DNA of 64,000 nucleotides from Escherichia coli (GCF_050920415.1 NZ_CP169309.1); one strand, 5' to 3'; numbered from the stretch's first letter, positions 1,778 to 24,138 are shown. Numbers and translations: made by a program. Notes: a model not told the origin generated them from the letters alone.

Positions 1778-3883
1778 TTAGTGCGCGCCTTTCGCCTGCG
1801 CCACGATCTCCTCGACATTTTCCGGCATTGGCTCATACGGCGTTTCTTTCGCCGTTGGCTTCGGCTCTTTCAATGCCGCCAGTGCCGTCTTAATCGAGAA
1901 CAGTGCCAGAACCACCACAACCACCATAAAGAAGATGGTTAATCCGGCATCCAGACGGTTGTTGAACACCAGTTGCGCCAGTTGTGACTCAGTATACTGC
2001 GACGGAATATTGCCGCTGTCGATCATTGCCTGGAACTTGTTAGCAATCGCCAGGAAACCGACTTTCGCATCCGGGCTAAACGCTTTCTGCCAGCCTGCGG
2101 TCAGGGTACAAATCAGCAGCCAGGCCGTTGGTACCAGCGCCACCCAGGCGTAACGTTGACGTTTCATCTTGAACAACACCACGGCACAGAGCATCAGCGC
2201 CATCCCTGCCAGCATCTGGTTGGCAATACCAAACAGCGGCCACAGAGTGTTAATACCGCCCAGCGGATCGACCACGCCCTGATGCAGAAAGTAACCCCAA
2301 GCCAGCACGCACAGCGCCGTTGCCAGCAGGTTAGCAGGCAGTGAATCGGTCCGTTTCAGGCCCGGAGAAACCACGCCCAGCAGATCCTGCAACATAAAGC
2401 GCGCAGCACGCGTACCCGCATCCACCGCCGTCAGAATAAACAGTGCTTCAAACAGAATGGCGAAGTGATACCAGAACGCCACATCCATCATGCCACCCAG
2501 CGCGCCGTGCAGAATGTAGGCCATCCCCACCGCCAGGGTCGGCGCACCGCCCGCACGGGAAATGATCGACTGTTCACCCACTTCGCTGGCAATCTGATTT
2601 AACGTATCTGGCGTAATGCTAAAGCCCCAGCTACTCACTACCTGCGCAGCAGATGCCACTACATCCGCCGTCCCCGCCGGAGCCAGCACCGCCATCGGAC
2701 TGTTCATCGCGAAGTACACGCCCGGATCGATGATACAGGCAGAAACCAGTGCCATAATCGCCACGAAGGATTCCATCAACATCCCACCGTAGCCGATAAA
2801 GCACGCCTGACCTTCGTTCGCCAGCATCTTCGGTGTGGTGCCGGAAGAGATCAGCGCATGGAAGCCAGACACCGCGCCACAGGCGATAGTAATAAACAGG
2901 AACGGGAACAGATTACCGGTCCATACCGGGCCAGTGCCATCTACAAACTTGGTCAGCGCAGGCATGGTCAGCGTCGGACGCATAATCAAAATGCCTACCG
3001 CCAGACCGACGATAGTCCCGATTTTCAGGAAGGTAGAGAGGTAGTCACGCGGAGCCAGCAGCAACCACACCGGCAGAACCGCCGCCACAAAACCGTAACC
3101 CACCAGCATCCAGGTCAGCTGCACGCCGGTAAAGTCAAAGTACGGTGCCCAAGTCGGGCTTTCTGCCACCCAGCCGCCAGAGATAATGGCGAAAATAAGG
3201 AATACCAGGCCAATCACCGACACTTCCCCAATGCGGCCTGGACGCAGATAGCGCAGGTAAATCCCCATGAACAGCGCCAGCGGAATGGTGAACGCAACGG
3301 TATACGTTCCCCACGGGCTATGAGTCAGGGCTTTCACCACGATCATCGCCAGTACTGCAAGGATAATGACCATGATCATAAAGCAGGCCACCAGCGCAAT
3401 CACCCCGGCGGTTGGCCCCATCTCTTCTTTAACCAGCTCGCCCAGCGAGCGACCGTCACGGCGCGTGGAAACAAACAGCACCATGAAATCCTGCACCGCA
3501 CCGGCGAGAACCACCCCGGCAAGTAGCCAGATCATCCCCGGTAGGTAGCCCATTTGCGCCGCCAGTACCGGCCCCACCAACGGGCCTGCTCCGGCAATGG
3601 CCGCAAAATGGTGACCGAACAGCACTTTCTTGTCCGTCGGCACATAGTCCAGCCCGTCGTTATGGCGCACCGCTGGCGTCATACGCGTCGGGTCAACCGC
3701 CAATACATTTTTGGCAATATAAAGACCATAAAAACGGTAAGCGATCAGATAGATACAGACCGACGCCACCACAATCCACAGCGCGTTGATCTGTTCCCCA
3801 CGATTTAAAGCAATGTATCCCAGAGCAAATGCTCCCATTACAGAGAGCACTGTCCAGACGAGGTATTTCCCTGATTTGTTCAT
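1778..3883 (-). CDS. cstA: carbon starvation protein A (peptide/pyruvate transporter CstA)
   Basis: 701-aa polytopic membrane ORF with the characteristic CstA N-terminus MNKSGKYLVWTVLSVMGAFALGYIALNRGEQINALWIVVASVCIYLIAYRFYG. Confidence 0.92.
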   Translation of the reverse strand: MNKSGKYLVWTVLSVMGAFALGYIALNRGEQINALWIVVASVCIYLIAYRFYGLYIAKNVLAVDPTRMTPAVRHNDGLDYVPTDKKVLFGHHFAAIAGAGPLVGPVLAAQMGYLPGMIWLLAGVVLAGAVQDFMVLFVSTRRDGRSLGELVKEEMGPTAGVIALVACFMIMVIILAVLAMIVVKALTHSPWGTYTVAFTIPLALFMGIYLRYLRPGRIGEVSVIGLVFLIFAIISGGWVAESPTWAPYFDFTGVQLTWMLVGYGFVAAVLPVWLLLAPRDYLSTFLKIGTIVGLAVGILIMRPTLTMPALTKFVDGTGPVWTGNLFPFLFITIACGAVSGFHALISSGTTPKMLANEGQACFIGYGGMLMESFVAIMALVSACIIDPGVYFAMNSPMAVLAPAGTADVVASAAQVVSSWGFSITPDTLNQIASEVGEQSIISRAGGAPTLAVGMAYILHGALGGMMDVAFWYHFAILFEALFILTAVDAGTRAARFMLQDLLGVVSPGLKRTDSLPANLLATALCVLAWGYFLHQGVVDPLGGINTLWPLFGIANQMLAGMALMLCAVVLFKMKRQRYAWVALVPTAWLLICTLTAGWQKAFSPDAKVGFLAIANKFQAMIDSGNIPSQYTESQLAQLVFNNRLDAGLTIFFMVVVVVLALFSIKTALAALKEPKPTAKETPYEPMPENVEEIVAQAKGAH

Positions 3884-4194
3884 AGTTGTTATCCGTGTGC
3901 GTGTCCATAGAGATGTTACATTTTGTTTCTATATCAGCAGATTTTATTTAACAACCAAGAAACCAATGCGCACAACAAAAACACCTCATATTTACATCAC
4001 ATTGTTAACGAGATCACTTTAGTCGCGAAAAGACGTGTACAATTACGGACAATTGAGAGGGTTGACTCACCAGAGTAGTAACACTACTTATATGCGAAAA
4101 TGCATAGCCGAAATCTATAGTATTCCGCGTCAATGTTATGCAACGCAACTATACGATAGCATGGCTATTTCGTTATATGATAAGGAGTCCTCCC

Positions 4195-4617
4195 ATGAGC
4201 TATGACAAAGCGAAATACCATTTTGACTCGGTTATAGAAGAAGGTTTACCGCTCAGCCAGGCATACATCCATACTGGTTTTTATTTAGGTTGGTTGATTG
4301 ATAATAACTTGTTGGACGAGGAGTTTAAGGAAGATCTCGCTGAATCTCTTGCCCTCTTTACGCGCAGAGAAATAACAGCCCCTCAGCTTTTTGAAGAATT
4401 CGATGGTACTTTGACCGATGAAGAACTTTCGACCCAAGGAAACGCCTTTACTAAACATTATTTTGATTTTGATACAGGCGATTATCTCGAAGACTACTGC
4501 ACCCATCTTGTCAAAGATCTTCCCAGCGAATTCCATGTAAAAGACACATGGGAAAACTATAAAATCGCAGCGAGTTTCATATCCAGACGCTATCAGGAAT
4601 GGCTACAGAACCAATAG
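4195..4617 (+). CDS. hypothetical acidic protein, unknown function (strain-variable insertion between cstA and entH)
   Basis: ORF in the 4138-4617 frame; probable start ATG 4195 preceded by taaggag Shine-Dalgarno (4181-4187); 140 aa MSYDKAKYHFDSVIEEG; surrounding DNA visibly AT-rich; no homolog recognised by eye. Confidence 0.5.
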   Translation: MSYDKAKYHFDSVIEEGLPLSQAYIHTGFYLGWLIDNNLLDEEFKEDLAESLALFTRREITAPQLFEEFDGTLTDEELSTQGNAFTKHYFDFDTGDYLEDYCTHLVKDLPSEFHVKDTWENYKIAASFISRRYQEWLQNQ

Positions 4618-4685
4618 TCTCACCCTCTGCACATATTTTTCCGGGTAGCGCTTTCACTTACCAGGCCAACAAATTCTCGCGAATC

Positions 4686-4715
4686 GTAGGCCTGATAAGC
4701 GAAGCGCATCAGGCA
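4686..4715. repeat. REP (repetitive extragenic palindrome) element
   Basis: gtaggcctgataagcgaagcgcatcaggca matches the E. coli REP consensus; lies between the 140-aa ORF and entH. Confidence 0.7.
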
Positions 4716-4727
4716 TATTAATCCAAT

Positions 4728-5889
<1,162 letters not shown>

Positions 5890-5890
<1 letters not shown>

Positions 5891-6747
5891 CATTTCACCT
5901 CGCGGGAGAGTAGCTTCCACCAGGCATCGATGGTCGGATTTTTCGCCAGCATGACAAAATCGATATCGCCATGCACTTTGCGCCAGCGCGCCGCCAGCGC
6001 CATCATGCGCACCGAATCCAGACCGTAATCAATTAGGTTGTCGTCATCGAACGGCTCATCGGACTCGTCCAGCAACGGCAGGATCACCTCTCGCAGCGCC
6101 GCTTTGGTTGAAGGGATCGGTGCAGGCAATAGTTCTTCGGTCATCACCACCCGGCCAGAACGCCCGGCTACATATTTCAGCGACATCAAATGCTCGTCAC
6201 GACTGAAATCGGCCAGCGCATCCGCCACCATAAACGGTTTAATATCGCGCATAAATGCGTCGGTTGCGGTGGTCATACAGCCAATGTGGGCGTACACCCC
6301 GGTAATAATCAGCTGGTTACGTCCACTCTCTTTGAGCATTTGTTCCAGCGGAGAACGATGAAACGCGCTGTAGCGCCACTTCACCAGCACCGTGTCGTCG
6401 GCATCTGGCGTCAGGCGATCCACCACCTTTTGCTGTTCCGGTGAACGGGTCAGGCCCGGCCCCCACATATCATTCAACAGCGCCCGATCTTCATCGCTCT
6501 GCTCTTTCGGCTGGGCGGTGTAATAAACCGGAATATTGTGCTGTTTGCAGTAGTCGCGTAGTGCCGCAATATTCGCGATCACCTGCTCCATCATCGGGCA
6601 GTTCTCGCCCCAGAAGCTAACAAAATAGTCCTGCATATCATGGATTAACAACGCGGCACGTTGCGGCTCAAAGGCCCAGTTGACTTTATTGTGCGGAATA
6701 TCGTGAGACTCCGGCAGTGCGTAAGCCTGTAATTTTGGAATAGCCAT
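5890..6747 (-). CDS. entB: isochorismatase / aryl carrier protein EntB
   Basis: 285-aa ORF MAIPKLQAYALPESHDIPHNKVNWAFEPQRAALLIHDMQDYF; C-terminal carrier-domain motif LIDYGLDSVRMMAL (phosphopantetheine site Ser). Confidence 0.93.
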
Positions 6748-24039: not shown

Positions 24040-24138
24040 GCCGGATGCGGCGTGAACGCCTTATCCGGCCTACAAAAATCTTGCCAATTCAATATATTGC
24101 AGGATAGTGTAGGCCTGATAAGCGTAGCGCATCAGGCA
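24040..24138. repeat. REP/BIME elements between fepA and entD
   Basis: tgccggatgcggcgtgaacgccttatccggcctac and gtaggcctgataagcgtagcgcatcaggca are two REP-consensus palindromes in opposite orientation. Confidence 0.7.

Follow-up and report, generated by a model that had tools for sequence, protein, structure and literature searches.

Two core genes of Escherichia coli, cstA and entH, follow one another on K-12-like chromosomes without a gene in between, and the locus described here raises the question of why a few lineages keep a further gene at this junction, how it came to be there, and what its product might do. The locus lies in a 64,000-nucleotide stretch of E. coli DNA (NZ_CP169309.1), referred to below as the window.

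The gene and its setting

An earlier note on this DNA had described an AT-rich cstA-entH spacer, much longer than that of K-12, that carries a well-formed gene with a Shine-Dalgarno sequence, an ATG at 4195 and an acidic 140-aa product of no recognisable function, transcribed opposite to both neighbours and followed on its 3′ side by a REP element. This observation is confirmed apart from the stated spacer length, which was given as about 1.2 kb and measures 844 bp (3884-4727). The corresponding spacer of a K-12-like chromosome (L002) is 180 bp long and holds no gene, and K-12-like genomes have about 130 bp of mostly unrelated sequence in place of 3935-4740. The GC content is 40.8% in the spacer and 40.9% in the open reading frame, against 56.5% in cstA and 51.3% in the whole window, with a trough of 38-43% across about 3750-4650. 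The features of the locus are given below; species X denotes a distant enterobacterial species represented by loci L075, L076 and L068-L070, and alleles are called filled or empty according to whether the gene is present.

1778-3883, minus strand: cstA, from the ORF layout of the window
3884-3934, minus strand: cstA leader or proximal upstream region common to all E. coli (98% identity between filled and empty alleles)
3935-4740, unstranded: variable haplotype segment with the DUF7832 gene (identity drop against the empty allele, cluster of differences in entH, presence in 33 of 5,426 genomes)
4003-4018, unstranded: CRP-like site TGTTA-ACGAGA-TCACT (invariant in the alignment; position fits the published cstA site)
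4182-4187, plus strand: Shine-Dalgarno sequence AAGGAG, 7 nt before the ATG (from the sequence; kept in species X)
4195-4617, plus strand: DUF7832 gene, 140 aa, pI 4.4, RefSeq WP_000119449.1 (Pfam PF25191, RefSeq, selection, AlphaFold model)
About 4631-4658, unstranded: degenerate REP-like palindrome CCGGGTAGCGCTTTCACTTACCAGGCC (clean palindrome in the species X counterpart)
4686-4714, unstranded: Z-type REP GTAGGCCTGATAAGCG..GCGCATCAGGC between the convergent DUF7832 gene and entH (exact match; hairpin)
4728-5141, minus strand: entH, from the ORF layout of the window

The open reading frame ends with a stop codon at 4615-4617 and encodes a protein of 16.6 kDa with 28 acidic (D+E) and 11 basic (K+R) residues. 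The start at 4195 fits both RefSeq and the conserved N-terminus of the family, which the upstream in-frame ATG at 4138 does not, and RefSeq annotates exactly this frame, as 'hypothetical protein' or 'DUF7832 domain-containing protein'. In a profile search the protein matched Pfam DUF7832 (PF25191) with an i-Evalue of 4.4e-36, residues 3-115 aligning to positions 2-115 of the 115-position model, and this is its sole Pfam domain. The family has no assigned function. Neither of the two outcomes that the earlier note had named as refuting it, a known function for a conserved ORF or a K-12 spacer with equal length and gene content, applies. Scans against NCBIfam, PHROGs and PADLOC gave nothing significant, and no enzyme family matched; the best PADLOC matches are to two related models, Csx1 (E = 1e-3, 16 bits) and a second one, CARF_PDDEXK (E = 2e-2). 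Both are partial, cover residues 63-127, and probably reflect chance.

The gene is divergent from cstA, and a control region of 311 bp lies between the two. Within it the CRP-like site lies 120-135 nt upstream of the cstA ATG, in keeping with the published cstA CRP site within -200 to -120 (PMC7730263), and is invariant in six aligned sequences: the window, O145:H28, a locus labelled 'E. fergusonii', two loci of species X, and the empty allele. Because the same site is also 177-192 nt upstream of the DUF7832 ATG, shared control of both genes by CRP is possible. Empty and filled haplotypes both have the motif, and the site therefore serves cstA regardless. No sigma-70 promoter on the plus strand and no intrinsic terminator was predicted, nor could a promoter be placed by eye, and an Rfam scan of 3700-4900 returned no RNA family.

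Downstream, zero copies of the exact Z-type REP are expected by chance in the window, and a second exact copy is present at 24109-24137 (GTAGGCCTGATAAGCGTAGCGCATCAGGC). The counterpart in species X of the degenerate palindrome at 4631-4658 is the clean palindrome GCCGGGTGGCGCT..GCTTACCCGGCC, and in the window the two elements pair with one another in the predicted fold (z = -3.9).

Distribution and history of the segment

A survey of the cstA-entH junction, which the earlier note had suggested, found the gene segment to be rare: it occurs in 33 of 5,426 complete E. coli genomes, 99.4% being without it, K-12-like genomes among them. In 5,406 of the 5,426 the match to the query is limited to about the first 50 nt (3884-3934). 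Five carriers are at least 99.6% identical to the window and the other 28 about 96% identical, most of the latter being O145:H28/NM Shiga-toxin producers with a few others; every carrier has a single, chromosomal copy. Database records list the exact window protein, under the label 'MULTISPECIES [Escherichia]', for 272 contigs; for the O145 variant the number is at least 1,000. One carrier, E. coli C325 (NZ_CP124819.1, 1965586-1966380, H63), has an indel, with 795 nt in the record against 791 nt in the query; because the protein is also recorded in a form cut short to 107 aa, on a contig whose length equals that of the C325 chromosome, the gene is probably a pseudogene in the C325 lineage. In a TPA assembly labelled E. 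fergusonii (L073, GCA_025382105.1) the stretch from cstA to entH is 99.0-99.8% identical to the window, a likeness far closer than expected between species that would reflect either an assembly filed under the wrong species or an exchange that took place very recently.

Beyond E. coli, the family is large and its occurrence across phyla sporadic. An exhaustive HMMER search found 1,138 family representatives at E <= 1e-3 and 551 at <= 1e-10, counted after clustering at 50% identity. Among 100,044 species-representative genomes there are 59 DUF7832 loci, none of them in representatives of Escherichia, Salmonella or Citrobacter; the hosts include Budvicia aquatica (70% identity), Woeseiaceae, the Bacillus cereus group, Paenibacillus and Brevibacillus, and further afield Verrucomicrobia, Planctomycetota and Chitinophagaceae. 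Plasmid matches were confined to Priestia, Bacillus and Tsukamurella, and a phage collection contained no DUF7832 match.

Two alleles are found in E. coli, that of the window and that of O145:H28 and strain GF3-3. Of the 423 positions in the open reading frame, 11 differ between them, 9 of these being third codon positions, with L48F and Q138H as the only amino-acid changes. This pattern and the Pfam match together rule out a chance ORF; the frame is a real gene under selection. Between the alleles, divergence is 6.4% in the 5′ spacer, 2.6% in the open reading frame, and 4.8% in both cstA and entH, from which it follows that the segment has diverged in step with its flanks. Six differences within entH bunch at 4729-4740.

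The comparison with species X extends this history. In L075 (a 404-kb ENA contig) and L076 the gene order hcxA-ybdD-cstA / DUF7832 / entH-entA-entB-entE-entC is the same as in E. coli, the spacer is homologous to that of the window at 84% identity, and both the Shine-Dalgarno sequence and the start are kept. Identity in the open reading frame is 91.7% for DNA and 92% for protein, compared with 84% for cstA, 81% for entH and 76% for entA in the flanks. In L068-L070 the gene is again divergent from cstA at a spacing of about 308 bp, even where a gene for a YafT-like lipoprotein replaces entH downstream. Taken together, the substitution patterns indicate strong purifying selection, both within E. 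coli and between species. Species X also has an inserted ParE-toxin/HTH pair (L075:4569-5247) that separates hcxA from ybdD, a few kb from the DUF7832 gene.

The borders of the variable haplotype can be placed at about 3935 and 4740, from the drop in identity on the left and the entH cluster on the right. Empty and filled alleles are 98% identical at 3884-3934, 52% at 3935-4033 and 45% at 4034-4078, whereas species X is 83% identical to the filled allele at 3935-4033. No terminal inverted repeats, target-site duplication or attC site are present in 3850-4800, and no transposase, integrase or other mobility ORF lies near the gene. The lack of terminal repeats, target-site duplication and attC rules out insertion of a mobile element; allele divergence in step with the flanks and the synteny in species X rule out a simple recent insertion; and the sharp boundary from 98% to 52% identity rules out the empty allele as a simple recent deletion derivative. 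The earlier note had called the segment an insertion. It is indeed a present-or-absent segment relative to K-12-like chromosomes, but it is bordered by no repeats or mobility genes, it is old, and it is shared with species X. Judged by these comparisons, the segment between the two core genes is an old haplotype that some strains have and others lack, and its probable route from one lineage to another is homologous recombination in the conserved flanks, cstA and entH, and not a mobile element.

Across the wider region, comparison of window 1778-5920 with L002 and L007 puts the differences between E. coli lineages at 4-5% for cstA, entH and entA. For core genes this is a high figure, suggestive of haplotypes that are deep or recombining throughout ent-cstA.

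The DUF7832 family and the neighbourhoods of its genes

An AlphaFold2 model built on an alignment of 62 sequences (pLDDT 97.1, pTM 0.92) predicts a short N-terminal strand followed by eight helices, a fold that superposes on those of other DUF7832 members at TM 0.9-0.97. A sequence search of the PDB gave no match, and Foldseek against AFDB50 returned exclusively DUF7832 proteins, with no solved or annotated relative among them. DUF7832, PF25191 and two WP accessions have no mention in the searchable literature. Identity between the E. coli protein and Bacillus members is about 40%, and D4, H9, W33, G82, F85, Y89 and D100 are near-invariant in the family alignment. An aromatic tail, K/P-WW-x-FW, closes many of the homologs but is missing from the E. 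coli protein.

About 65% of members are single-domain proteins. Extensions of at least 50 aa occur among 194 members at the N-terminus (49 proteins) and at the C-terminus (20), 17 of these extensions having membrane-like segments. The commonest multidomain form has an N-terminal WGR-like domain of about 75 aa (26 of the 194), Pfam WGR being detected in 4-6 of the 64 fusion proteins scanned; no Imm or SUKH domain was found by Pfam in those 64. TIR_2/ThsB_TIR fusions account for 2-3 members, GrpB, Lon N-terminal and Hsp70 pieces are single cases, and one protein (P0119) is a tandem self-duplication of DUF7832.

When ORFs within 3.5 kb were clustered across 58 loci, no conserved partner gene emerged, the recurrent families being generic or shared by sister species, and a Pfam scan of 150 immediate neighbours likewise gave generic families (hydrolases, regulators, GNATs) among the top 20 listed. 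Among 11 large same-strand upstream neighbours there is no toxin; they include DnaE, YidC, acyl-CoA dehydrogenase, a helicase and sensor kinases. Particular loci are more suggestive. In Bacillus sp. 103mf the gene stands in a same-strand run of Ank, DUF2247, SUKH-4, PTS_2-RNA, Imm47, two unknowns, DUF7832, Imm30 (a weak match) and SMI1_KNR4, and loci of the B. cereus group have homologs of the 103mf Ank, SUKH-4, Imm47 and DUF4284 genes. In Buttiauxella it is the gene immediately after DUF2314, among small genes that form a run beside an IS3 transposase; in L082, where the protein is 63% identical, it is followed by DUF4288 and Imm32; and on a Priestia plasmid an SMI1/KNR4 gene precedes it, within an island made up of small hypothetical genes. 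DUF2314 and DUF2247 correspond to Imm34 and Imm38 (Zhang et al. 2012, PMC3482391), and heterogeneous polyimmunity loci have been defined as toxin-less, same-orientation, strain-variable arrays of several Imm families (PMC3482391), a definition that the loci just described match; WGR is nowhere mentioned in that paper. Outside Bacillus, only three or four loci have a clear polyimmunity-type context, and the E. coli locus is not one of them. The 69 small same-strand neighbours at non-Bacillus loci include DUF4272 (twice) and assorted DUFs, with no canonical Imm family in the 20 families listed, a cut below which one-off members of diverse Imm families could lie, and the association of DUF7832 with immunity-type arrays is for this reason real but partial.

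A further arrangement of same-strand genes is seen in Budvicia-type genomes (L009:4502-6447; L071; L072), where DUF4240, an unannotated protein of 284-299 aa and DUF7832, in that order, form a trio with gaps of 5-53 nt.

Homologs are also carried as integron cassettes, as attC-bounded single promoterless ORFs, in two unrelated arrays, L005 (54% identity) and L082 (63%). L005 has at least 20 near-identical repeats of about 130 nt, on both sides of the ORF, that start with GCCTAAC, end with GTTAGGC, and fold as hairpins (z = -4.6 and -3.7). L082 has a canonical attC of about 60 nt at 5-66 and more repeats ending in GTTRRRY between small ORFs. The first of these is part of a chromosomal integron cassette array with an IS3 element (L005:3080-12470), most cassettes of which encode small proteins without a Pfam match. 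Within the second, two IS110-family copies (L082:1334-2530 and 4489-5685; segments 83-94% identical) lie beside attC sites and are reminiscent of attC-targeting elements of the IS1111 type.

Possible functions and known systems

The DUF7832 protein of E. coli is most likely, though we propose this tentatively, an orphan immunity-type binding protein, since its homologs are carried by integron cassettes and by arrays of genes for immunity to toxins. Under this proposal a soluble, acidic, mostly helical protein of the cytoplasm would bind the toxic domain of a protein toxin that rival bacteria deliver, and so neutralise it, whichever toxin that may be, and the gene would be kept without a toxin gene of its own as a pre-emptive defence. 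In E. coli the gene stands alone, is transcribed out of the 311-bp region with the cstA CRP site, and ends at REP hairpins that it has in common with the convergent entCEBAH operon. Besides the array and cassette contexts, strain variability, the small, acidic and non-enzymatic character of the protein, and the self-duplication seen in one member all favour immunity, and to that extent the suggestion in the earlier note of an immunity or antitoxin-type protein finds backing; its toxin-antitoxin half does not, no toxin partner having been found and the E. coli gene having cstA and entH, not a toxin gene, as neighbours. Counting against immunity are the failure to find a cognate toxin, the want of Imm-domain fusions, the atypical WGR and TIR fusions, conservation across phyla that is high for an immunity family, and the stable synteny with cstA in enterobacteria. 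Moreover, integron arrays and accessory islands hold many kinds of gene, and guilt by association is therefore weak.

The fusions point in a different direction, in which DUF7832 would serve conflict or signalling systems as a sensor or adaptor, binding a ligand (a protein, nucleic acid or nucleotide-derived molecule) and regulating an effector, whether attached to it or separate. The stand-alone protein of E. coli would then be a free regulatory subunit and not a toxin neutraliser. The prevalence of the WGR-like form, the TIR_2/ThsB_TIR fusions along with GrpB, Lon-N and membrane-anchored forms, the high conservation across phyla, and a set of near-invariant residues (D4, H9, W33, F85, Y89 and D100) that suggests a conserved binding surface would all be accommodated. 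Yet the majority of members have the one domain only, no effector gene is conserved beside them, the PADLOC matches are just marginal and partial, and the polyimmunity arrays are left unexplained, so that we regard this alternative, the main rival, as unlikely. The divergent pairing with cstA, held at a spacing of about 310 bp in E. coli and species X even where entH is gone from downstream (L069/L070), and an invariant CRP-like site that matches the published location, would instead be expected of a physiological accessory protein for carbon starvation or for pyruvate or peptide uptake, co-regulated with cstA through CRP and acting on or with CstA/YbdD or the enterobactin pathway. Such a role is improbable, given that outside enterobacteria the gene is never beside cstA or ent genes, that nearly all E. 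coli do without it, that the CRP motif would serve cstA in either haplotype, and that no sigma-70 promoter is predicted on its strand.

Far less probable again are two other explanations. A small, acidic product and marginal Csx1/CARF matches might recall a type II antitoxin or a gene of a known anti-phage defence, but the gene is monocistronic between core genes with no small toxin ORF adjacent, Pfam finds no DNA-binding domain, neither PHROGs nor phages give a match, and the PADLOC matches fall below a useful threshold; for a toxin-antitoxin antitoxin in particular, the anatomy of the locus amounts to effective refutation. That the ORF is a decaying hitch-hiker with no current function would agree with its rarity and with the truncated 107-aa allele of one lineage, and is scarcely credible in view of purifying selection, a conserved Shine-Dalgarno sequence and a family of more than 1,100 representatives; the substitution pattern contradicts it. 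What probability remains belongs to functions outside these readings. There is also a small chance that several of these strands belong together, such that DUF7832 is a previously unrecognised and widely mobile family of conflict-related binding domains, found in cassettes, polyimmunity arrays and WGR/TIR fusions, the last linking it to toxins or signals based on nucleic acids or on NAD/ADP-ribose. In enterobacteria it would then persist as an ancient trans-species presence/absence polymorphism at cstA-entH, wired to the carbon-starvation (CRP) control region, with protection coming on in the crowding of stationary phase.

Since the gene is already catalogued as encoding a DUF7832 protein, the entity itself is known, and its finding will be no surprise to a specialist. 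What appears to be new is the link of DUF7832 to polyimmunity arrays and integron cassettes, found nowhere in the searchable literature, which turns a catalogued DUF gene into one with a contextual hint of function, as a candidate immunity-type accessory protein. If the protein is of immunity type, the catalogue of interbacterial-defence genes would gain one more family, and a few E. coli lineages, notably the O145:H28 Shiga-toxin producers, would be marked as resistant to some toxin. A family that is large and mobile, with an orphan fold and a very confident model, is tractable for structural work and partner screening. Whatever the function, the locus illustrates cleanly how an old accessory haplotype can be kept between core genes without mobile-element machinery.

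Set against known systems, the segment differs from a transposable element or genomic islet in having no terminal inverted repeats, target-site duplication or mobility gene, and the protein has no significant match to any anti-phage system model in PADLOC-DB. With type II antitoxins it shares small size and acidity, but not an adjacent toxin, a DNA-binding fold or an operon partner. Immunity genes of polymorphic toxins lie directly downstream of the toxin gene or cassette, whereas the DUF7832 gene of the window lies between cstA and entH. For the integron homologs of L005 and L082, attC sites (RYYYAAC ... GTTRRRY) mark the limits; the window copy, in contrast, has neither attC nor a nearby integrase and is provided with its own upstream region and downstream REP elements. 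In acquired interbacterial defence clusters, immunity genes are reportedly kept without their toxins against attack by non-kin, as arrays on mobile elements in Bacteroidales. The concept is common to both, although here it would apply to a single gene in a core-gene junction, with protection putative. The Imm proteins of polyimmunity loci (PMC3482391) resemble the DUF7832 protein in being small, intracellular, strain-variable and without an enzymatic signature, and its homologs do occur in same-strand, toxin-less arrays with Imm38, SUKH-4, Imm47, Imm34 and Imm32; they differ in that DUF7832 is not among the listed Imm families and has no Imm-domain fusion, that the E. coli copy is a singleton, and that WGR/TIR fusions are atypical of them. 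With Pfam DUF7832 itself the agreement is complete but for the K/P-WW-x-FW tail of many members, and by its full-length match and common fold the window protein is a full member of that family.
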